Below the pieces are notes generated by a model. That model did not search any database and was not told the origin of the DNA. It was given only the letters and a program-made list of their open reading frames with translations. Positions 2,950-16,306 of a DNA stretch of 64,000 bases are shown here, in pieces. The stretch comes from an uncultured Bacillota bacterium (GTDB lineage: Bacteria > Sysuimicrobiota > Sysuimicrobiia > Sysuimicrobiales > Segetimicrobiaceae): positions 296,089-360,088 of the forward strand of contig CAWDRG010000005.1 in NCBI GenBank assembly GCA_963804645.1, in the 5' to 3' direction. The position numbers and the translations under genes were made by a program. Numbering within the stretch: the stretch's first letter is position 1; each line of letters begins with the position of its first letter.

Positions 2950-5190
2950 CTACTTGGCCTGGCCGCCGGGATAGATCGCGCGCATCGAGCTCAGGTACAG
3001 GACGCCGTGCGGAGTCTTGGTCGGATCCGTCACCACGACATAAAACGACGACCAGCTGATCGGGAACGCCAGCCCGGGAGGAAACGCCGCGGTGACCGAG
3101 CGCCACCCCGTCCAGTCGACGCGCTGGGCCAGCGTCACCGTCCCCTTCTCGCCGTTCTCCTGGTCGAACACGCCGCGCAGCCACGCGCCGCTGCCGTCCC
3201 CGTAGACCCACACGCTGACGCCCGATGGCTCCCCGACGAGCGGAATCTGCGTCTGCACGTACGCCGCGCGCGTCCCGGTGCCGTCGAGGCGGTAGGTCAG
3301 CGCGACCGACGGGTGGCCGTCGTGGCTCGGATCGGAGACGCGCGCGACGTCGCCGGTGACGGAGTCGGGATAGCCGCGGAAGGTCCACGCCCCGACGTCG
3401 AACTGGTCCAGGTACCGAGCCGTGCTGCCGATCGCGACGCGTGCCTGTCCGAACGTGCCTCCCAGGGTCGCGGTGACCGTGCCGTTGCCGGCCGCGTCGC
3501 CGGGCACAAACGACCCCGACGGCGAGATGGTGCCGAGCGTCGGCGGCGCGACGGTCCACTGCGCGATGCCGCTCGGCACGATCACCGGCCGCCCGGTGCG
3601 GTCCACCGCGCGGACCGTGAACTGCGCCGGCTCCCCAGGCGCCACGGTCAGGGTCGCGGGGCTGACCACCAGCTTGGCCAGCTGGGTCACGACCGAGACC
3701 GGCGCGGTGCCCGACGCGGCGCCGCTCTGGACCGTCATCGCGCCGGATCCCGCGGACGTCGATGCGGTCACCGTACCGTCCGGTCCGACCGTGACCAGCC
3801 CGGGCGGGGACGTCACCGCCTGCAGCGGATCCGTCAGGGTCGTCGGGTTGCCCTGCGCGTCGACGCCGATCACCGAGAGCGCCGTGGATGCGCCCGCGAA
3901 CAGCTCGAAGGGCTGCCCGGCGTTCACCAGGAGGCGCGCGGGCGGCCCCGGCACCGCGGAGCTGTACACCAGCACCGCGTCGCCGACCGGGCGCTCCTTG
4001 CCGTCCGACGGTGAGTTGACGACCGACGGCGCGGCGGCGCCCGGCAGGCGCACAACCATCGTCGCCGAGCCTCCGCTGTCGAACGCCATCGCCTCGGACG
4101 CGCCCAGCCGCTGCATGTAGGCCGCCAGCTGAGGGCGGGTCAGCCCGATGCTCAGGGCGGGCTGGCGGCCGTCGACCTCGACAAACGTCAGGGTGCGCCC
4201 GTCCGGCGCGATGCCGACGGCGATCACCGGATAGCGGTGGCTGCTCTCTGACGGCGACGGCGGGTCGGAGTCCGTCGCGATCTGTCCGTTCGCCACCAGC
4301 AGCGGCCCGCCGCCGACCGCGAGCTGCGCATCGTGCCAGTCCGGATCGGTCGTCAGCGCCAGCTGGACCGGCATCCCGGTCGTGAGCCGGTTGAGCCAGT
4401 CCGCCCCCGCGCCCCGTCCGACGAGGATCACATCGTCGTTGGGAAACGGCACGTAGAACGGCTGCTGCGGCCACAGCTGCTTCACGAAGGCGTGCCCCTG
4501 ATCATCGGGCGGCGTGAGCTCCGCGACGACCTGGCGGGTCGCCGCATCGGGCTGCGGCGCCCCGTACCCGCGGATGTTGGAGAGCAGGACGATCCCGTTC
4601 GGCGACAGGCCGCTGTTGTACCCGTCGAGCGGCCGCGTCTCCCCGGTCGCGGTCAGCGTCACCGTGCCGGTCCACCGGTACCGGATGATGCGCGCGGCGC
4701 CGTCCCGACCGATGACGAGCGCGATCCAGCGCCACGGGCTGCGGAGCAGCTGCCCGTTCTGGATCACCAGATTCAGCGGAATCCCCGATTCGTGGATGTC
4801 GAAGTAGTCGGCGTTGATCCCCGCGATCGCCCCGGTGCGGAGCGCCATCGAGGAGACCGTCTCGTCGTCGCTCATCAGGCGGTCGCGCGCGATCCCGACG
4901 CCGAGGTGGATCGTCGGATTGCTGAGGTCGACCTGCATCTGATGCAGGTCGAGGGGGCCGTCGGCGGTGGCCAGGGTCAGATGGCGGTACTGAATGCCGG
5001 ACGCGACCGGAAGATCGACCACAGCGGTCGCGAGGATGGAGGGCCAGCCGCCCGGGGGGCCCTGGGCGAACACGCCCGGGCTGAGCAGCGACAGCACGAG
5101 GAACAACGCCACGCCGAACACGAACCTGCGACAATGGTACTTCCGTAGAGTCATGCGATGCCGTCCGCTGCTGCGTCGTACGAGAGTCAT
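2950..5190 (-). CDS. Secreted phosphodiester glycosidase (NAGPA-like) protein with Ig-like and C-terminal carbohydrate-binding-like domains
   Basis: Motifs AGINADYF, AVGGGPLLV, VDGRQPALSIG, AMAFDSGGSATM and NSPSDGKERPV; signal peptide. Confidence 0.85.
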   Translation of the reverse strand: MTLVRRSSGRHRMTLRKYHCRRFVFGVALFLVLSLLSPGVFAQGPPGGWPSILATAVVDLPVASGIQYRHLTLATADGPLDLHQMQVDLSNPTIHLGVGIARDRLMSDDETVSSMALRTGAIAGINADYFDIHESGIPLNLVIQNGQLLRSPWRWIALVIGRDGAARIIRYRWTGTVTLTATGETRPLDGYNSGLSPNGIVLLSNIRGYGAPQPDAATRQVVAELTPPDDQGHAFVKQLWPQQPFYVPFPNDDVILVGRGAGADWLNRLTTGMPVQLALTTDPDWHDAQLAVGGGPLLVANGQIATDSDPPSPSESSHRYPVIAVGIAPDGRTLTFVEVDGRQPALSIGLTRPQLAAYMQRLGASEAMAFDSGGSATMVVRLPGAAAPSVVNSPSDGKERPVGDAVLVYSSAVPGPPARLLVNAGQPFELFAGASTALSVIGVDAQGNPTTLTDPLQAVTSPPGLVTVGPDGTVTASTSAGSGAMTVQSGAASGTAPVSVVTQLAKLVVSPATLTVAPGEPAQFTVRAVDRTGRPVIVPSGIAQWTVAPPTLGTISPSGSFVPGDAAGNGTVTATLGGTFGQARVAIGSTARYLDQFDVGAWTFRGYPDSVTGDVARVSDPSHDGHPSVALTYRLDGTGTRAAYVQTQIPLVGEPSGVSVWVYGDGSGAWLRGVFDQENGEKGTVTLAQRVDWTGWRSVTAAFPPGLAFPISWSSFYVVVTDPTKTPHGVLYLSSMRAIYPGGQAK

Positions 5191-6564: not shown

Positions 6565-6567
6565 GGT

Positions 6568-9500
6568 TCATCCGGCATTTTCGGGAATTCCAGGAAACGC
6601 GGCCATGATCTTCAGGAAGAAGTAGCCATCGTCTCGGTAGCCGTACCCCATGCGCTTGAGGACCTTGATCTTGTGGTGGGTAGAGGACGGCCTCGGATCG
6701 ACCCTTGCGCCGTCCTCCCCCCGCAGAACCCGGCGTGCAGGTTTCCCGCACCGGGCTCCCCAGAGCGACATTCACGCCTCGGCCTCGTCAGACCGTCGGA
6801 TGTAGAGTCTTCGGGCGTGGCAGTTCAAACCACGAGCGGCTCCTGAGGTAGCTCCAGAACAACCGGTGCCATTGGCCGCGCCGACGCAACGTTCTTAGCC
6901 ACTGGAGCTGGACCTCATGACAGACCCAGTCCAACTTCCGCTCGCAGTGGTGTAGGGCGAAGTACTGGTAAAATCCCCGCAGCATCGTCGTAAGGTGAGC
7001 CTGTTGCGCCCGGCGATTCCAGTGCATATGGCTCCTGAGCCATTCATGGGTGCGATCCAGAAACGTCCTGCAGCTGTCGTGTGCCGGAATGCGCACCACG
7101 GCGAACTTGCCCCGCCGGTCCCTACCGCACACGTGCTTGAAGCCCAGAAATACGAACGTGCCTGGCTTCTCTCCATGTGCGGCGGCCCGCTTTCGGGCCT
7201 CTCGCCCAAACAGCAGTAGGCGCGTCTTCTCTGGTTTTAACTCCAGGCCGAACTTCTGCATCCGCTCCGCCAGTTCGCGGCCGAAGGCGTTCGCTTCCGC
7301 CTGATGCTCGAAACATACCACGAAGTCGTCCACAAACCGAATCAGGTGAGCGGCCCCTTGACAGCTCCGCTTGAACCGTCGCTCGAACCAGAGGTCGAGG
7401 ACGTGGTGCAAGTAGAGATTGGCGAGCACGGGGCTGATCGGATTGCCTTGCGACACGCCCTCCCTGTTTCGGACGACAACTCCGTCGTGCATCACCCCGG
7501 CCCTGAGCCACTTGCCAATGAGCCTCAGGATTACGGGATCGGCGATGCGATGGGCCACCATCTTCCGTAACCAGTCGTGATTGATGCGTGTGAAGTACCC
7601 GCAAATATCCGTCTCGAAGACGTACTGTGCTTTCCCCGCAATCAGATGGCCGCGAAGATCTCGCAATGCCTGGTGCGGGTTACGCCCGGGCCGGTATCCG
7701 TATGAGCACTCCACGAAGTCCTGCTCGTAGATGGCGCTGAGAATCCGCGCCACTGCGCGCTGCAGTAACCGGTCTTCCACCGTGGGAATGCCGATCGGGC
7801 GCATAGCCGACGTGTCCCCAGGTTTGGGGATGTCTACCCGTCGCACCGGTGGAGCCTGATACCGCCCTGCTTTCAGTCGTTCCCAGAGATCGACGACCCG
7901 TATCTCCAGATCGCGCTCGAACTGCGCGCATGTCTCTCCATCCACTCCGCTGGCACCCCGCCGGTTCATCTGCTGCCAAGTTTCTTTCAGAAACTCTGGC
8001 GTCAGAATGTGCGCCAGCGACGTGAAGCGGCACTTCGGGTCTGCCTTGGCTTTGATCGCTATCCCGGCCAGTCCGGTGGTCACCCTGATCCTCCCTCTGA
8101 AGGTGGAGGGGATGTTTCCCCGACCAAGGTCGTACGCTCTGCCCCGCCGCTTCCCCATGTACGCGGCTCTCCCGCGCTCCGAGTACTACCAGCGGGTCCG
8201 ACTTCCACCGCGGCGTTTGCCTCTCTTCGGTCGAACCATCTCGATCGGCATACTCGATCCACTCGATCAAGACCGCGGTGGATCTCCCAGGTCCCTCGAC
8301 GCGTCCGTCTCCGTCCGTGCCGTGCTCTCAGACCCCGCCGGGGTCTCCGGCATCCTCGCCCTAACGGATGCGTACTGTTGCCTTCCACGATAACAACCGT
8401 GTCGGCCCCCGGATTAGGAAGTCACGAGGCTCAATCGCTTCCTTTGCAGTACGGCCCGGACGTCGCCCTGTCTACGCTTAGCCCATGTCGTTACCTCCAT
8501 GAGCCCAAGACTCGGTTCCCGGTGGGTGGCTGGCCCTTGCCGGGGCGGGAATTGCACCCGCTGGACGCGCCAGATTTGTCCTGGCGCGCTGTTGATGCCC
8601 TCGAGGAGGCTGGTGTGTAACGGATAGCGACAGTGCGCGATGATCCCGGGGAGCCGCATCTTGAGATGGCGGGCAAACGTCTTGAGGGGTTCAATGCGAC
8701 TGCGGATGGCACGGTGGTACCAGTCGGTGAAGAAGCGGGTGGCGGCGCCAGGATAGGTATAGTCCCACATCTGCTTGAGATCATCCTTCAGCACGTAGAC
8801 GGCCGCAAGCCGCCGGTTGGCTGCCAAGAGGTCCTGGAGTCGTACGCGATCCTCCGGTTTGACGTTCTCACGATTGCGCAAGAGGAGCCACCGCGCGCCT
8901 TTGATCACCTTGCGGGCTTCTTTGTCGCGCCGCACGCGATTGGCTTCGTCCACGCGCACCCGGTCAATGACTTCGCGCCCGTACTTGGCGACCACGTGGA
9001 AGAGGTCATAGACAAGGACCGCGTGCGGACAATGGGCGCGCACTTCTTCTTCGTAGGCCGTGTTCATATCCATCACCACCGCCTGCAGACGCTTGCAGCC
9101 CTCGCCACCTAACAGCGCGAAGAAAGGACGGACGTCGTCGCGACTCCGGCCTTCGCCGACCCAGAGCACGCGTTTGCGCCGGGGTTCGACCACCACCGTG
9201 GCGTAGCGGTGGCCCTTTCGCAGGGCGAATTCATCCATCGCAATCGTTGTCACGTTGGACAGGTCCACCGGGAGCAACTGCTCTGCCAACGCGGCCACGT
9301 CCAGGTTTTTCACGGTGTCCCAGTCGAGGCCGTAGAACTCTGCCACGTGCTTCACCGGCAGGATGCGGCAGAGCCGGACCACGCTCTCCGCCAGGCGCTT
9401 GGTCACCCGGTCCCAGGCCGACAGCCAGGACAGGGCCTCGATTTTGGGGCCGCACGTGGGACAGGCAACGCGGTAGCGCGGCACCCATACGTGAGTCTCG

Positions 9501-9721
9501 GCGTCGAGCAGCGGCAGATCCCGGATGCAGCGGACCACCATCTCATGCGCCTTCGCCGTCTCTTGGCCGCACCCGGAGCACCGGAAGGTCCGCTTCTCGC
9601 GGGCCAGCGTGATCTCCACCCGCGGTTTGCCGGCTCCCGTCGTTGGTTCGATGCGCTCCACCAGCTTCACCCGATAGCATTCCCACCCGACCAGCACATT
9701 GGTAGACTGATCATGAGGCAA
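6568..9721 (-). CDS. ISL3 transposase, join(8590..9721, 6568..6674); 412 aa after intron removal
   Basis: Zinc finger CSGCG/CPTCG, IAMDEFALRKGHRY, VVMDM and YDLFHVV. The splice junction restores LEGINNKIKVLKRMGYGYRD in frame (1239 nt). Confidence 0.9.
6675..8589 (-). mobile_element. Group II intron 1 (1915 nt) in the ISL3 transposase gene
   Basis: 5' end GCGCGCCAGG; domain V GAGCCCGGTGCGGGAAACCTGCACGCCGGGTTC; domain VI ending CTACCCACC. Removal restores the exon frame. Confidence 0.9.
6788..8158 (-). CDS. ltrA: Group II intron reverse transcriptase/maturase, no endonuclease domain
   Basis: RT motifs ASGVDG, RPIGIPTVEDR, SYGYRPGR, GVSQGNPISPVLANLYL and FVDD, plus an X/thumb region. No C-terminal HNH. 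The true start is probably downstream of 8158 (VTTGLAGIA). Confidence 0.93.
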   Translation of the reverse strand: MGKRRGRAYDLGRGNIPSTFRGRIRVTTGLAGIAIKAKADPKCRFTSLAHILTPEFLKETWQQMNRRGASGVDGETCAQFERDLEIRVVDLWERLKAGRYQAPPVRRVDIPKPGDTSAMRPIGIPTVEDRLLQRAVARILSAIYEQDFVECSYGYRPGRNPHQALRDLRGHLIAGKAQYVFETDICGYFTRINHDWLRKMVAHRIADPVILRLIGKWLRAGVMHDGVVVRNREGVSQGNPISPVLANLYLHHVLDLWFERRFKRSCQGAAHLIRFVDDFVVCFEHQAEANAFGRELAERMQKFGLELKPEKTRLLLFGREARKRAAAHGEKPGTFVFLGFKHVCGRDRRGKFAVVRIPAHDSCRTFLDRTHEWLRSHMHWNRRAQQAHLTTMLRGFYQYFALHHCERKLDWVCHEVQLQWLRTLRRRGQWHRLFWSYLRSRSWFELPRPKTLHPTV

Positions 9722-10017
9722 GGTGCTCCCCCTTCCCTGAAGCGCCGTGTTCGCAGCACGTGCTCAAGGATAGGGGTGTGGTACCTTGCCTTCAACCTAT
9801 ACGGCTATCCCGGTTTTGCCTGAAGAACCGTAAAAAAACCATAATGGCAAAAGTAGCATCGGCGGCATGTGCGACCACTGATGTCGAGGATTCATCCTTA
9901 GGCATTCTGAAGATCAACGACGGCGAAGTGACGCGTCAGGCACTCGAGCACAGCAGTGATCATTGTACGCAAATCAGTTCGAGTCGTGAACGCGATAGAG
10001 AGACGCGTCGTGGAAGA

Positions 10018-10254
10018 CTATAGGGGCTTGCTCGGGGCGGAGGTTTGCCAGAGCTGTTCCAGTCGGGTGAGGAATGCCTCAGGCGCTCTTCGGTATCGCG
10101 CTCTCTGACGTCGAGGTTCCTGACTCGCGGCCCAACGTTGCATCTCCGTCCGGTATTGGTCGGTGGGAACGTGAGCAAACCATTCGATCAGGACGTCTGG
10201 AGGCAGATCGACTGCATATACCGCCAATGCTCCGTACCGCATAATGTAGCCCTC
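10018..10254 (-). pseudogene. C-terminal piece of the same transposase, displaced by the cargo element
   Basis: Removing the insert gives the in-frame RKSW(D/E)GYIMRYGALAVY...RARYRRAPEAFLTRLEQLWQTSAPSKPL*. Confidence 0.8.
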
Positions 10255-10291
10255 GGTAATGGTAGCGTATGAAACGCTACCACTACCGAGG
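10251..10291. repeat. Terminal palindrome, left (18-bp arms, one mismatch, 5-nt spacer)
   Basis: CCTCGGTAATGGTAGCGT-ATGAA-ACGCTACCACTACCGAGG. Confidence 0.9.
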
Positions 10292-10700
10292 TCTGGGTGG
10301 TGGGAGCGGCAGCGGTGGTGGCACCACGCCCGGCGGAGGCAGTCCCGGGGGTGGGAGTCCCACTCCGGGTGCGAACTCCGGTCCTGGAAGCAGCGGTGGG
10401 AACGGGGGAAACGAGCTCCGTGGCCCCCACTTCTCCGGCCAACACTGTCATTACTATATGGCCCGTAACTCCGGCGCCCGCGCCGACGACGCCGGCGGTC
10501 CCGGCAGTGCCTGCTGCACCGACACCGGTTGCGGCGACACCGGCAGTGGGCCGACACCCGCGAGGCCTCCAGTGGCGCCGGCGGCCGCTCCTGCGCCAGC
10601 GGCTCCGCAGCGTGCTGGGTTCGGCCCCCCCGTGCTCGGAGGTAGCGGGCCGACTGTGGTACTCGGCGCCCCGCGTCAGCACGGCGCCGGAACATGCCGC
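10290..10700 (+). pseudogene. Gly/Ser- then Pro/Ala/Thr-rich low-complexity coding fragment (cargo)
   Basis: GGGSGSGGGTTPGGGSPGGGSPTPG and VTPAPAPTTPAVPAVPAAPTP tracts in adjacent frames; no clear start. Confidence 0.35.
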
Positions 10701-11066
10701 TCTCAGGGCGGTTCAAGGACAGCCGACCAAGTTACCATTTGGGGGCATGTCGGAAACAAAGCGCTCCCTAAATCACGCTCGGACGCTGGATTGGAACGCT
10801 CATGGCTTCAATGGGGGCGATTTTGTTCGGGTGGAAGGTCGAGTAGTTGGAGAGCGCCTGGCACTTTCAGTTCGCGGTGCGGCCGGAGAATCGGGATACC
10901 GCTGCTCATCTGGGGCGCCGGTACGGGTGGTGCGCCTGTCTTGCAAAAAGCGGATTCCAGCGTCGATTCTGAGGTTACGAGCCGAACGACGGCACGGTGC
11001 CGGACATCCCGGCAGCGAGACGTGCGTCACGCGGTGGGACGGCCCGCTGAGCCCGTGACAACGCAT

Positions 11067-11096
11067 CGGGGAGCGAGTGCGAACCCTCGCTCCCCG
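11067..11096. terminator. Hairpin downstream of the PEP-CTERM gene, probable terminator
   Basis: CGGGGAGCGAG-N8-CTCGCTCCCCG, about 50 nt after the stop. Confidence 0.55.
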
Positions 11097-11146
11097 TCAA
11101 TTTGAAGAGACTTGGTCGCGTTCCTTAACGCTTTACCGGTCTCCGA

Positions 11147-11791
11147 TTAGCGCCTCACCTTGCGGCGAAGCAGACCGGCGGCGCCGACCAGTCCGAAGGC
11201 GAACATCGAGAGCGAACTCGGTTCCGGTACGGGATTAGGGGCGATCTGGCCGGCTGAGATCTGTCCCTCCAGATCAAACCATGCGGTGCCAGTGTTCGCC
11301 AAACCGCTGCTGCCTCCCACGAGAACGGTGCCGCTGTCCAGGCTCGGGCTGATGTTAGCAAAAGTGGCGCTCGCGCTCTCGTAGTCATTTGGGTCGGTAG
11401 ATGTGAAGGAGCCGCCGCACTGAGCGGCCGTTGGGCTGGGAGAATAAGTGCCGATGCATGCACCGTCGCCGTCAAAGCCAAATACTCCGCTACCCACGCC
11501 GCCGGTGATCGCAACGCTCTTCAGTGTGCCACCCGACGAATTCAGAACGCCGATCAAGGTGTCTTCGATGCCGTCGAAGGGCCCCTGATCAGGCGATGCC
11601 GTGGTGACATTAAACCCCGTGGCTACGTCTGAACTGTTGACCGATGTAACCGTAAGCAGCAGTTCGCATCCATTAGTGTCATTACCGACAGGCGGGCACT
11701 CGGTAAAGGAGGCGGCATACACTGCGGGGGTGACTGCCCAGAGAAGCACCGCTACCGCAGTCAGCGCAATACCCCATCTTATCGTCCTCAT
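11147..11791 (-). CDS. PEP-CTERM (exosortase-sorted) surface protein
   Basis: Signal peptide MRTIRWGIALTAVAVLLWA...VYA; C-terminus PVPEPSSLSMFAFGLVGAAGLLRRKVRR; AAGGAGGT SD. Confidence 0.93.
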   Translation of the reverse strand: MRTIRWGIALTAVAVLLWAVTPAVYAASFTECPPVGNDTNGCELLLTVTSVNSSDVATGFNVTTASPDQGPFDGIEDTLIGVLNSSGGTLKSVAITGGVGSGVFGFDGDGACIGTYSPSPTAAQCGGSFTSTDPNDYESASATFANISPSLDSGTVLVGGSSGLANTGTAWFDLEGQISAGQIAPNPVPEPSSLSMFAFGLVGAAGLLRRKVRR

Positions 11792-12247
11792 GCACTTACC
11801 TCCTTGATCGCTGTGGTCGCTGTGGCATTGCTGGGTGGGCTACGGCATCCCCCCTCTCGTTCCGGGGCGACGAGGATCGCGTCTGCGGAGCGCTGACGCC
11901 CTCGGCGCGGAGTCTGACCTCGGAATGGGGCTCGCTGTCCGAACCCATCCTCCATCGAACTCGAATGTGCTTTCCCGTCCCACGGGGGAAATCTTTGTAT
12001 CACTTGAATGAAACAGGCCACAAAAACGAACGACCGCTGGTCGGTGCGGGTTACGAACGTGGCTGCCGAGGCGATTCTGATTACTTCCTTTGAAGGAGGC
12101 TTTGGAAGGAGGCTTTCTGGACCGGGGCGGCAGCAGTCCGGCGCGCACGTCATCCCGCGAGATGCACAGCTTCGCCCCGCGGCGTCGGTTCACTCGATTC
12201 GGTCCGCGCGGATGGCCGAGCCCAGCGCCGGGCCTGGTCGAGGCTCT

Positions 12248-12756
12248 CTAAACGGGCGGTCCGAAGCGGGTGCGCGAGCGTCGCAGCGCGGCACGCAGCC
12301 CCGGGCGGGCCAACTGAAGCGGCGCGCGACCCACCGCGTATCGTACCGTGAGCGGCGGCCGGCGGTGTTTGGTTGCGATCAGGCTTGCCACCTCGGCCCA
12401 GATCGCGCTCAGCAATCCGTTCACGGCGTGTCGGCGGGGCGCCGTGCGCCGATGCGCCAACGCGTGACGGAGCGCGCCGCGGAGCGCTTCGGTGCTCGTG
12501 GTGGGAGCGTCGGACGCGACCGCCACTCGGCGCGCCGCCCAGGCCAAGGCATCTCGCACCGTGTCCTGCCGCACGATGTGCGGGCATCGGGCGGCCGCGC
12601 CGATCATCTGGTCGGGAGCGAAAGCCTCGTCGGAGGCGTGCGCGAGCTGCGTGACGGTGAGCGCCTCGACGAGGGCACGAGCGTCCTCTCTCAGCGGACC
12701 GGTGGCAGCGGTCTGGGGGAGCTGCGTCAGGGCCTTGTCAATGATTAGCCGAACGG
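12248..12756 (-). other. Possible truncated hypothetical ORF (cargo), open from the right palindrome
   Basis: ORF 12248..12787 has its start inside the terminal repeat; helical, Ala-rich, family not recognised. Confidence 0.3.
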
Positions 12757-12791
12757 GGTAGTGGTAGCGTTCCCCAAACGCTACCACTACC
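12757..12791. repeat. Terminal palindrome, right (perfect 15-bp arms, 5-nt spacer)
   Basis: GGTAGTGGTAGCGTT-CCCCA-AACGCTACCACTACC. Confidence 0.92.
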
Positions 12792-13760
12792 TAGCCATCC
12801 CATGACTTGCGCCCCGTGGTTCGGCGGTGTGCGCTCTTGGCGTGGCGCAAGAACCGCTCCAGATCGTTGTTCGTCCGCGGGATCTCGGGGTGCAGAAAAC
12901 AGGTGAACAGCGTGTCGCCGAATCCCTGGGTGTACTTTTGGAAGGATTCCGCGAACAGTTCGTGCGCTGGCTGAGTCACCGCGGCCTGTGCGACCGCGGC
13001 CATGAGCGTGCGCACTCCCATCTTCGCCTGCGCCGCAGCATCATGGGGAAGCACGCCAGGGTATTTCTCTGGATCGATGACCCGAGCGAGACCCAGTAAC
13101 CACGTGTGTTGCTGCTTGAGCGTGGCGTAGTCAGCGCCGTAGATCTGGTGGCGAGTTGCGATGTGGGTCAGGGTCCGCATCATGGGTACGGGCCGGACCG
13201 CAAAGCACCGCTGCAGGGAGGCGTAGATACGCTCCAGATTCTCATAGGCGCGGATGCCCCCGGGTGCAAGTGGCGGCAGTCCGTTGGATCCCGTCGAGGG
13301 AGAGCACCAGCCCGCCGTTCTGCTCGATTTGGCGGCGCACCGCCTCGACTTGCTGGCCGGCCGTGCACCCGAGAAGTGCGAAGTACGCTTCGTAGAGGCC
13401 CTGGACGTGGCGCGCACTGATGATGACCCCGCGCTGGCCGAGCTCGGCATGGATCTCAGCCCGCGTGCAGTGGTCCACCGTCCGGAGGCGCCCCACCGTG
13501 ACCAGCACGTCCATGCCGTACGTCGAGCCCTTGAGGCTCAAGCCTTCGGCGACGGCGGAGCGGTACACGCGGCGGTCGCAAGCGGCAGTCCAGCATCGAT
13601 ACCCGAGGCTCCCGGCCCAGAGCACTTCGGACAGGCCGATGATATGTTTGCGCCAGACGGGGTGACTGTACACCAGAGGCGCCCCGCACACCAGACAGGT
13701 CCGGCATTCGGGGCGGAAGTAGACGCGCCGGGGAGCCGCAAACACACGCGCGCACCTCAC
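12792..13760 (-). pseudogene. Transposase of the 22-bp-TIR element, N-terminal and central part (apparent internal deletion with frameshift near 13283)
   Basis: CLVCG...CWTAAC zinc finger, YGMDVL and LVLSLDGIQ, then an abrupt frame switch to GLPPLAPGG...HPEIPRTNNDLERFLRHAKSAHRRTTGRKSWDG. Confidence 0.8.
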
Positions 13761-14146
13761 GGGCGCTTGCGGATCACCTCCGCAGGATCGAGTTGGGCGG
13801 CTTGCCGAAGGCGCTCCAAGAGACCTTGGAGCTCGACGTCGAGCGCGCGCAGGTGTCGAGCATGCGCCCGCCATCGCCGATACGCGCGGGCCGCTGTGCT
13901 GGCCGGACCCGCCTTGGTCGGCGCCACGGGGAACACGTGCGGCGTGCCCGCACGAAACACTGAGAGGCACCAATAGGGGCCGTGTTTCTTCCCCCGCATG
14001 CAGCGGCACCCCGGCTTCCCGCACACCCGGTAGCGCTTGAACAAAGAGCCGGTCAGAGTCGGCCCGATCGCTAACGCCTCCTCCAAGACAGCGGTTCTCA
14101 GGCGGTTCACCGCTTGCACCTTGGTGCGCAGGGCCTTGGGACCCAT
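13757..14146 (-). CDS. DUF6788-like small Cys/His protein, transposase-associated
   Basis: Motif GSLFKRYRVCGKPGCRCMRGKKHGPYW. GGAGGTG SD upstream. The stop overlaps the GTG of the next gene. Confidence 0.75.
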   Translation of the reverse strand: MGPKALRTKVQAVNRLRTAVLEEALAIGPTLTGSLFKRYRVCGKPGCRCMRGKKHGPYWCLSVFRAGTPHVFPVAPTKAGPASTAARAYRRWRAHARHLRALDVELQGLLERLRQAAQLDPAEVIRKRP

Positions 14147-14304
14147 CCGCCACCTCCGTCTTCTCTATCTGCCACTAGTATTCCTTTTCATAATGCCAGA
14201 TCTCAAACCAAAAAGAAAGGAGCATGCGAAGGAGCGCCGCCGAGCACTCCAGTCACCTGCTCCAGTGCCTGTCTATGGCCGTGATGCTACTTTTGCCATT
14301 ATGG

Positions 14305-14448: not shown

Positions 14449-16306
14449 GTCGAGTAGGACCAGCGATCGCTCGCTGGGACCCCTCTGCCGAACGGCTCGT
14501 ACGGATCTCCCGTAAGCCGCTCTACCCCATGCCGACTCGTGAGTCATCAGGAATATATCCGAAGAGAGTGGAGCCCCAGACGGCGGTAGAAGAATGTTTC
14601 AGAGTATCGCCGCCAGTTCGCCGTGCGCCAGCGTTTGGCCATGAAGGCCCGCAGCCTCCGAAGGATCCAGCGGTCCAGCGGCCTCCCGATCCGTCGCAAG
14701 TCGCCAATCCGGAAGAATCGTCCCCAACCGCGGAGCACTGGATTTAGCAGCGCCACGATCTCGTCCGCCCGACGCGGTTGGTTACGCCGCGTAAGATGAC
14801 GGACCTTGTCCCGGAGCCGCTGTATTGCTCGCGCCCGTGGCTGTAGGTGCAGTCCCTCCTCATCGCGCCAGAAGCGGAATCCAAGGAACTCAAATCCTTC
14901 CGTAATGTGAACGACCCGCGTCTTCGCAGGATGCAGTCGCAGTCCCAACTGCCCCTCCAGAATCTGGTGGACCTGCTCCAAGGCCGCCTCGGCGTCCTCG
15001 CGCGTTCGGCACACGATGACACTGTCATCAGCATACCGGACCGCGCGATGTCCTGCCGCGAGCATCTGATGATCGAAGGTGTTCAGAAACGCATTACTGA
15101 GCAGCGGCGAAACTACACCCCCTTGCGGGGTGCCCGCTACCAGGGTACGCTTCTTGCCCTCCTCCATCACCCCGGCCTGGAGAAACGCCTGCACGAGCCG
15201 GAGAATCCGCCCATCCGCCACCACCTCGGCGACTGCGGCCAGCAGCCGCGCATGGGACGCGGTGTCGAAAAACTGTTCAATATCGATTTCGACAATCCAC
15301 TCGCCCCCGTGATGCAGGCTCGCCATCACATCGCCAATGGCCTGATGCGCTGACCGTCCTGGACGAAACCCGTAACTGGTCTCCGCAAACCGCGGCTCAA
15401 AGTGCGGTTCCAGCCGCAGACGCATCGCCTGCGCCACGACGCGATCTCGTACAGCAGGGATCGCGAGGCCGCGACGACGTCCATCGGGTTTGGGAATGTA
15501 GACGCGACGCCCGGGCTGGGGCACATAGGCATCGTCCTTGAGGGCCGCCTGGAGTCCTTGCAACTCCTCATCCAAGTGTGCCTCAAATGCCTCAAGGCTC
15601 TGACCATCCACGCCCCACGTCCCGTGGTTCGCCTTGACCAGCGTCCAGGCCCGCCGCAGATTCGGCAGGTACCAGACCTTGTCGATGAGCGAGCCGACCT
15701 TGATCGGATGCACGTCCTCCGCCACTCCTCCTCCTTCCTGACCAGAGTCCTGTTGGTCGGGGTCTGCACCGGTCGCGGCTCGGGAGCTGCTCATGACAGA
15801 GATCCCTTACCCCGCGCTCGTCAAGCCGATCCCGCCTTCAGGCCACCAAGCATGGAGCGGGTCCCTTCGCTCTGCCAGGTTTCCCTGACCTCATCGCTAC
15901 GTCTGGACCCGTCCGACTCCTGAACGTGCATCGGGTTGGCTTTTCCCCTTCCGGGTTATACCGTCCCTACCTGTCCGCGCAGGACCGAACCCTACTCGCG
16001 ACAGGACACGCTCAGGCCTCCCCGGGTCATGCTGCTCTCTGTCCCACCATGCTGCCCGCACCCACGACTGATCCCCCCTGGTCTTCTCTGGATGCCCCTT
16101 CCTCCAGTACTAGCAGAGTCGGGCCTCCAGGGGTTCGCGCCGACCGGTTCGCCTGGCTTCGACAGCCTCGGCTGCGGCCTGGTGGTTTGCCTCAGGTCCT
16201 TCAGATTCCGCCTCGCGACGGACACCCTACCCTTTTCGGCTACGGTCCGCATCCAGCTGGACCGGCAGGTCTTTCACCTGCGAGAGAACAGCACTGCCGG
16301 GCACAC
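14449..16306 (-). mobile_element. Group II intron 2 (1858 nt) inserted inside the right terminal IR of the IS701 element
   Basis: 5' end GTGTGCCCGG; domain V GAGCGGCTTACGGGAGATCCGTACGAGCCGTTC; 3' end CCTACTCGAC. Removal restores a perfect 14-bp IR. Confidence 0.93.
14547..15794 (-). CDS. ltrA: Group II intron reverse transcriptase/maturase, no endonuclease domain
   Basis: SLIDKV, GVDG, IPAVRDRV, SYGFRPGRS, GTPQGGVVSPLLSN, YADD and LNPVLRGW. The real start is probably a GTG near 15713-15725. Confidence 0.94.
   Translation of the reverse strand: MSSSRAATGADPDQQDSGQEGGGVAEDVHPIKVGSLIDKVWYLPNLRRAWTLVKANHGTWGVDGQSLEAFEAHLDEELQGLQAALKDDAYVPQPGRRVYIPKPDGRRRGLAIPAVRDRVVAQAMRLRLEPHFEPRFAETSYGFRPGRSAHQAIGDVMASLHHGGEWIVEIDIEQFFDTASHARLLAAVAEVVADGRILRLVQAFLQAGVMEEGKKRTLVAGTPQGGVVSPLLSNAFLNTFDHQMLAAGHRAVRYADDSVIVCRTREDAEAALEQVHQILEGQLGLRLHPAKTRVVHITEGFEFLGFRFWRDEEGLHLQPRARAIQRLRDKVRHLTRRNQPRRADEIVALLNPVLRGWGRFFRIGDLRRIGRPLDRWILRRLRAFMAKRWRTANWRRYSETFFYRRLGLHSLRIYS

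Follow-up and report, generated by a model that had tools for sequence, protein, structure and literature searches.

A 2537-bp stretch of DNA at positions 10255-12791 of the window, the 64,000-nucleotide stretch analysed here from an uncultured Bacillota bacterium of the Segetimicrobiaceae (assembly GCA_963804645.1, contig CAWDRG010000005.1, positions 296,089 to 360,088 of the forward strand), interrupts the transposase gene of another mobile element. The key observation is that this DNA was inserted once, by a staggered cut of 8 bp, into the transposase gene of an insertion sequence (IS) of ISNCY type. The best reading of the inserted DNA, to which we give a probability of about 0.72, is that it is a non-autonomous DNA transposon of the type called a mobile insertion cassette, in which passenger DNA lies between inverted ends without a transposase. 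An initial interpretation made without database searches (the sequence-only reading) had proposed a non-autonomous, cargo-bearing element, and was right as to the kind, but missed that this kind already has a name.

The transposase open reading frame (ORF) of the host element is on the minus strand, where it runs as ...TTGRKSWDG to 12794, meets the stop codon TAG at 12791-12793 and is picked up again 2.5 kb away as (E)GYIMRYGALAVYA..., from 10254 downwards; the insert splits the gene exactly between ...RKSWDG and YIMRYG. A homologue search with the 219-residue upstream part of the transposase, in which only longer proteins were considered, gave eight proteins, and seven of them (P0002-P0008, 509-534 amino acids, 38-90% identical) align with the host transposase over the full length. 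All seven are gapless across the join, with the pattern SW(D/N/T/S)(G/S/E)(Y/A/F)I(M/V/L)R, four have WDGYIMRYG exactly, and it is at that alignment column that the two fragments of the window abut. As the homologues are contiguous across the join and the fragments abut there, the gene has been split by the insert. The sequence-only reading, in which the transposase stopped at RKSWDG and resumed as GYIMRYG, was thereby borne out by the ORFs and by the uninterrupted homologues, with the KSWDG side joined to the YIMRYG side in 7/7.

The insert is flanked on the left by TAGCCCTC (10247-10254) and on the right by TAGCCATC (12792-12799), which are identical at seven of eight positions. The left copy has C for A, unlike the right copy and the empty site, and this C is a change that either followed the insertion or accompanied it. 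Twenty-one public sequencing runs are listed with part of the stretch and four of these (X1, X7, X8 and X11) were compared in detail; X7 and X8 cover parts of the stretch only, and the parts they do not cover are uninformative. A 259-nt contig from X11, a soil metagenome of a separate study, joins 10246 to 12792 and contains one TAGCCATC, i.e. it represents the empty site. It spans 10093-10246 and 12792-12892 with 5 differences in 255 nt, the shorter side of the joint is 101 nt long and five letters at the joint fit either side. Because the 2545 bp skipped correspond to the 2537 bp of the insert plus 8, there is direct evidence of both the empty site and the 8-bp duplication, and the flanks that had been put forward as a 7-of-8 target duplication are confirmed as such. 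In run X1, from peat, one contig has the host element without the interruption, in a copy that is more diverged (joint 10197 to 12792), and other contigs cross both filled junctions. Metagenome contigs from three other samples (L014, L015 and L017) also have both filled junctions letter for letter, at 97.6-99.7% identity overall.

These contigs also bear on the suspicion that the arrangement is an assembly chimera or a local rearrangement instead of an insertion. The assembly (5.3 Mb, 96.8% complete) is a metagenome-assembled genome in 22 contigs with 4.2% contamination, and L014 is mosaic in its host-element part, which would lend such a suspicion some weight. However, identical junctions were found in contigs of the three other samples, X1 covers both, and the empty site was obtained separately, so that the join is no assembly artefact and this explanation can for practical purposes be dismissed. 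L014 itself is ~99.5% identical to the window over the insert and on to 12925, but differs by ~10% in the host transposase (12926-13217); either the contig is chimeric or diverged copies of the host element have recombined.

The insert has inverted termini, GGTAATGGTAGCGT from 10255 and GGTAGTGGTAGCGT as the reverse complement of 12778-12791, that match at 13 of 14 positions (P = 1.6e-7 for such a match at fixed ends) and whose outer borders coincide precisely with those that the empty site defines. At up to two mismatches the 14-mer occurs four times in the window against an expectation of 0.16. The inverted GGTA(A/G) termini of the sequence-only reading were thus correctly recognised, but the structure of each end was missed: each terminus is a palindrome in which the 14-mer occurs twice, with the second copy lying inward in inverted orientation. 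The left terminus (10255-10287) is a 33-bp palindrome with the 14-nt outer arm GGTAATGGTAGCGT, the loop ATGAA and an inverted inner arm, and the right terminus (12757-12791) is a perfect palindrome of 35 bp with a 15-bp stem, GGTAGTGGTAGCGTT, around the loop CCCCA. Folded as single-stranded DNA they have predicted energies of -18.8 kcal/mol (z -8.06) and -17.8 kcal/mol (z -6.19), respectively. Of the four arms, three share one sequence and the last is one base off, the loops are unrelated (ATGAA and CCCCA), the spacing of the 14-mers is 5 nt at one end and 7 nt at the other, and AAACGC... is common to both inner junctions. Near-identical arms with unrelated loops fit two separate, near-total internal deletions of one parent better than one mini-element copied twice. 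Through the C-for-A change the left flank happens to be able to pair with the sequence immediately inward of the left palindrome (CCTC...GAGG; 10247-10294), which extends the stem by four pairs to 18 pairs including one mismatch; this is regarded as a curiosity.

Ends of this form could be taken for something other than transposon termini. Cargo flanked by recombinase sites, without a transposase, is known from dif modules, and the palindrome at each end, with its short spacer between arms of 14-15 bp, might be read as the binding site of a recombinase dimer. The insert would then be a site-specific recombinase module of the Xer/dif or loxP-like kind, and the joint of the corresponding circle would consist of an arm, 8 bp and an arm. 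This is very improbable: judged by the empty site, 8 bp of target DNA were truly duplicated, and these do not resemble the arms, the spacing of the 14-mers is unequal at the two ends, and searches of the insert against Pfam and NCBIfam found no recombinase gene. Strong predicted hairpins at both ends of DNA without a transposase also recall derivatives of the IS200/IS605 type, palindrome-associated elements moved as single-stranded DNA by an HUH transposase. The IS200/IS605 family makes no target duplication, has subterminal hairpins and inserts next to a short target motif, whereas here a duplication is seen, the hairpins are exactly terminal and the ends are inverted copies of each other; such an origin is scarcely credible. 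It is the target duplication that excludes both hairpin-ended single-strand transposons and recombinase-site modules.

The 8-bp duplication points instead to a DDE enzyme. The tips GGTAATG and GGTAGTG fit the pattern GGnnnTG, with G at positions 1, 2 and 7, and are accompanied by the 8-bp duplication. Ends of the form GGnnnTG and direct repeats of 8-9 bp are given for the IS1 family in Table 8 of PMC10425158, which cites ISfinder. For IS6/IS26 the sections of Harmer and Hall (PMC6807381) on the ends of these elements describe G1, G2 and G7 as nearly invariant, a 14-bp repeat, an 8-bp duplication and the GGnnnTG motif in most elements. Position 10 of the arms is A rather than the consensus G10, and A at this position is reported for clade III of IS6/IS26 in the same sections (PMC6807381). 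The ends had been likened to those of IS1 and IS6 from the outset; the tips and the duplication agree with this comparison (PMC10425158, PMC6807381), but the assembly encodes neither an IS1 nor an IS6 transposase. A transposase of the host element's own family was considered as the mobiliser and is unsupported; the repeats of the host, Nostoc and Deinococcus elements share a GGCAAAA core that the ends of the insert lack.

No transposase was found in the insert when 12 + 6 ORFs were compared with Pfam and nine with NCBIfam; the ORFs of the insert gave PEP-CTERM families only, which agrees with the original statement that no recognisable transposase is present. A further possibility is that the element was autonomous when it landed and that its left segment (10288-11146, 859 bp) is what remains of a transposase gene, in which case nothing need have been moved in trans. 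At some 860 bp the segment has roughly the length of a transposase gene of IS1 or IS6 (IS26, in the description given in PMC6807381, has a 234-amino-acid protein in an 820-bp element), and an ATG-started frame of 278 codons begins inside the left end and reads inward. However, the segment, which has long ORFs in several frames, has no Pfam, NCBIfam or Rfam match and its six frames have no family match at E <= 1. Another frame, of 261 amino acids, matched itself alone among 5.8 billion proteins. None of the frames has a consistent excess of G+C at third positions, and the first 130 codons are Gly/Ser/Pro low complexity. Nor is there decay in the ends or in the adjacent PEP-CTERM gene, and the segment has no base differences from L017 and only 4 from L015. 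Decay of a resident transposase gene is therefore quite improbable, and we retain the reading as a cassette without a transposase of its own.

Several results weigh against the cassette reading, and most of them come from the search for further copies and for a cognate element. Transposases of IS1 (PF03400) and IS6 (PF13610) number zero in the 5.3-Mb assembly, in which the positive controls were found. The arms agree with the IS6/IS26 14-bp consensus GGTTCTGTTGCAAA (including G10) at only 6-7 of 14 positions, and the two target copies differ at one base. The 14-mer matched at two places in 93 other genomes of the phylum, both times singly and outside a hairpin, as against six matches of the control pattern. 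A strict hairpin pattern had no match in one genome per species from 185,579 species, and in the metagenome contig collection no hairpin was found beyond this locus except one unrelated partial look-alike, L016. An autonomous element with these ends was found neither in the assembly, nor in the 93 genomes, nor in the hairpin scans of the large collections, which by their nature target hairpins, the single 14-15-mer repeats of an autonomous element being too short to search for. To our knowledge there is no citable precedent for ends that are palindromic doublets. Everything searched thus amounts to one insertion event with one cargo. The sequence-only reading had gone further and envisaged a family of transporters that move exosortase-target genes; this is unsupported by a single insertion event with a single cargo, and neither the copies with different 8-bp flanks or cargo nor the autonomous partner that it anticipated were found in the assembly, the phylum genomes or the hairpin scans.

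Within the assembly, where repeats may be unassembled, there is one copy each of the insert and of the host element. At up to one mismatch the 14-mer matched the four arms and, with one mismatch, one site on C2, compared with nine matches of control patterns, and at up to three mismatches there were 83 single matches and two other inverted pairs, both without matching flanks. In relatives from the same order, 5 of 40 genomes have matches to DNA of the insert, all of only 27-101 nt (E 1e-4 to 9e-4). In the literature 85 papers contain one of four 13-mers of the ends, and those among the matches listed look from their titles like coincidences with primers.

The strict hairpin pattern had five loci in four metagenome contigs; three of the contigs are this locus and the fourth is L016, in which positions 4001-4043 comprise the full 14-nt left arm, the loop TTGAA and part (10 nt) of the right arm, followed by a third, partial copy. 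The L016 hairpin is directly behind the stop of a diguanylate-cyclase-like gene and its structure could not be parsed as an insertion with a duplication. A looser pattern found two loci in genome contigs. One, in a Chloroflexia genome (L021, 3990-4045), is a perfect 52-bp palindrome that has the arm of the element with 2 nt inserted and is single-copy in that genome; the other, from Hymenobacter, is terminator-like and was rejected as a further end. The 9-bp core hairpin was present at six loci in viral contigs, none with GGTAG tips, which shows that such cores can arise by chance. The look-alikes are treated as chance, with L016 and L021 perhaps excepted; these two are either chance or distant kin. 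An alternative view of the ends is that the palindromes of 33-35 bp are free-standing 'portable ends', composed of the two inverted repeats of an undescribed IS and nothing else. If this were true they would be self-inserting units, any two of which make a transposon of the DNA between them, and the L016 and L021 hairpins would be solo members. Arbitrary chromosomal genes, in the present case one for a surface protein, would then be mobilised across phyla with almost no sequence footprint and be invisible to annotation. We consider this unlikely.

For the cassette the following mechanism can be proposed. Each end would be a unit of 33-35 bp that holds both inverted repeats of a parent IS with 5-7 bp left between them. 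The element may have originated as a compound transposon (IS, chromosomal segment, IS) with collapsed flanking copies, or as a segment bracketed by two mini-elements. A DDE transposase supplied in trans would have cut and joined the outer tips, and the GGnnnTG tips, the 14-bp repeats and the 8-bp duplication suggest an enzyme of IS1 or IS6/IS26 type. Mobilisation in trans is in this sense inferred. The insertion event could have taken place in this lineage or earlier on another replicon. As no partner is present in the assembly the element is probably now immobile.

The passenger DNA contains one intact gene, on the minus strand at 11147-11791, that encodes a PEP-CTERM protein of 214 amino acids. 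The domain scores above the curated cut-offs of both PF07589 (27.9 bits, cut-off 20.7) and TIGR02595 (22.6 bits, cut-off 16), and besides an N-terminus that resembles a signal peptide the protein has a VPEP motif, a hydrophobic stretch and a tail rich in Arg. The gene had been described as intact with a Shine-Dalgarno sequence and a terminator. It is intact in the window and in L017, the products of which differ by three conservative residues, and AAGGAGG is situated 7 nt upstream of the ATG, but the terminator was not borne out by a terminator scan, in which the G+C-rich 10-bp stem-loop just downstream (11069-11098), which has no T-run, was not called. In metagenomes there are 210 relatives of similar length, the best of which other than itself are 62-64% identical, and the few named relatives are Acidiferrales. 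Of the 93 other genomes of the phylum none has a match to the protein at E <= 1e-5; within these the family is foreign to the phylum. When nine frames of the insert were compared with the assembly by tblastn the sole match was a PEP-CTERM paralogue of 35% identity. The genome has at least 11 other PEP-CTERM matches and encodes an exosortase (PF09721, 253.5 bits, C15:478769-479521), and because of this the imported protein could be processed and used by the cell. None of the listed runs with this stretch is on record as RNA.

The right-hand part of the insert (12248-12787, minus strand) is a 179-codon frame, strongly enriched in G+C at its third codon positions (0.81), from a family-2 glycosyltransferase gene truncated at its 5' end. 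An exhaustive search matched it with two versions of itself and with five proteins of 397-418 amino acids at 27-35% identity. The match is confined to the C-terminal ~130-170 residues of these proteins (residues ~225-396), and all five have PF00535, the family-2 glycosyltransferase domain, in the N-terminal half. Homology to the C-terminal third only, in a frame that runs into the right palindrome, indicates that the catalytic part of the gene has been cut off exactly there, and an end that cuts a gene is what would be expected of captured DNA. One of the two gene fragments originally reported is verified in this way; the other, which has no family or homologue match, is not.

In the spacer between the two genes (11792-12247) the glycosyltransferase fragment is followed, at 12043-12031 of the minus strand, by a hairpin that has a T-run and resembles a terminator. 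The spacer also has a 13-bp tandem repeat (TTTGAAGGAGGCT-like, 12089-12114), which lies upstream of the PEP-CTERM gene and is present in two copies in the window and in three in L017, L014 and the X1 contig. The G+C content is 72% in the glycosyltransferase fragment and 60% (60.2%) in the PEP-CTERM gene, and in the left segment it is 73.8% over the low-complexity part at 10288-10650 and 62.3% in the remainder, compared with 68.6% for the whole genome. Such unevenness (60% to 74%) suggests that the passenger DNA may be a mosaic.

The host element appears from its sequence to be unclassified; it has two genes, repeats of 22 bp and 8-bp flanks rich in A, and from these flanks it too seems to make 8-bp duplications. 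Its left part (9839-10246, minus strand) has one 22-bp terminal repeat (9839-9860) and the last 78 codons of the transposase. The right part (12800-14304, minus strand) has the N-terminal and middle portions of the transposase, a DUF6788 ORF upstream of it (13757-14146, minus strand; PF20586, E 5.9e-18) and the other 22-bp repeat (14283-14304). The transposase has no Pfam family and only a weak IS66 match in NCBIfam (E 6e-4); relatives are annotated as 'transposase' on plasmids of Nostoc PCC 7120 and as 'ISNCY family transposase' in Rhodovastum, and none was found in 60 related genomes. The host transposase of the window is without residues ~155-277 (about 123 codons, at about 13284) that are still encoded in L017, and run X1 has loose ends at 13283/13284; this internal deletion is a later event in the lineage of the window.

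The region is a pile-up of mobile DNA. L015 and L017 are otherwise collinear with the window but lack positions 6565-9829 (3265 bp), and at the join the two alignments overlap by 8 nt. By eye this DNA seems to have an ORF for a reverse transcriptase of group II intron type (6788-8158, minus strand) and one for an ISL3-like transposase (8414-9721, minus strand), and a second reverse-transcriptase-like ORF of 415 amino acids (14547-15794, minus strand) is located just past the host element. The history may have begun with the insertion of the host element, with its DUF6788 ORF and a transposase of ~529 amino acids, into an A-run. The cassette would then have landed in the transposase gene, unless the nested pair arrived together, moved by another copy. 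The loss of about 123 codons of the transposase in the lineage of the window would have come later, and a further 3265 bp (6565-9829) would have been inserted adjoining the host element.

The filled and empty sites together cleanly document the entry of an exosortase-sorted surface-protein gene into a lineage that is otherwise without that protein family, and the gene rode in transposase-less DNA nested inside another insertion sequence. Such cassettes therefore exist beyond the few pathogens and Bacillus strains of the original descriptions, and gene callers would miss them. As a single copy without a partner the insert does not yet open a new question. If more copies were found, the doubled ends could indicate an undescribed IS family or very small elements that consist of ends only.

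Mobile insertion cassettes include the MIC231 type of Bacillus cereus. Cassettes of this kind, e.g. those related to TnXax1 in Xanthomonas, are described in the relevant sections of two papers (PMC4337579, PMC3129680) as passenger genes between IS-type repeats, without a transposase, with a target duplication and presumably mobilised in trans. The insert has IS-type inverted repeats, a target duplication and a passenger gene without a transposase, and is like them in its cargo and in its presumed movement in trans. However, for the known cassettes a transposon with the same repeats has been identified, and there are several copies that differ in cargo, whereas the insert is single, has no cognate element among the sequences searched and has at each end a palindromic doublet of the repeat. 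With IS6/IS26 and IS1 it shares the GGnnnTG tips and the 8-bp duplication, and with IS6/IS26 the 14-bp repeat, as far as these are set out in the sections of PMC6807381 and the table of PMC10425158 used above; it differs in that neither transposase is present in the insert or the assembly and in its 6-7/14 match to the consensus. Compound transposons and composites of miniature elements also consist of a segment, with a gene cut at its edge, between end-bearing units of which the outermost tips are used. Integron mobilisation units are composites bounded by miniature elements, and we know of no doubled palindromic ends in the IS6/IS26 or IS1 families. At 33 and 35 bp, with 5-7 bp between the repeats, the bracketing units of the insert are far smaller than the miniature elements described. 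REP/REPIN hairpins and the palindrome-associated derivatives of IS200/IS605 are similar in their terminal or near-terminal hairpins, the lack of a transposase and GTAG at the foot of the stem, but they occur in many copies per genome and make no target duplication, in contrast to the single copy and 8-bp duplication seen here. The nearest idea to the doubled ends comes from Tn10, nearly precise excision of which reportedly leaves short palindromic remnants (work of Ross, Swan and Kleckner in 1979 and of Foster et al. in 1981), i.e. palindromes that keep both outer ends after loss of the interior. Those remnants are scars at one site, whereas here two such units flank the cargo and appear to have served as transposon ends. 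The kind of element is already known, and it is the doubled palindromic ends that set the insert apart.

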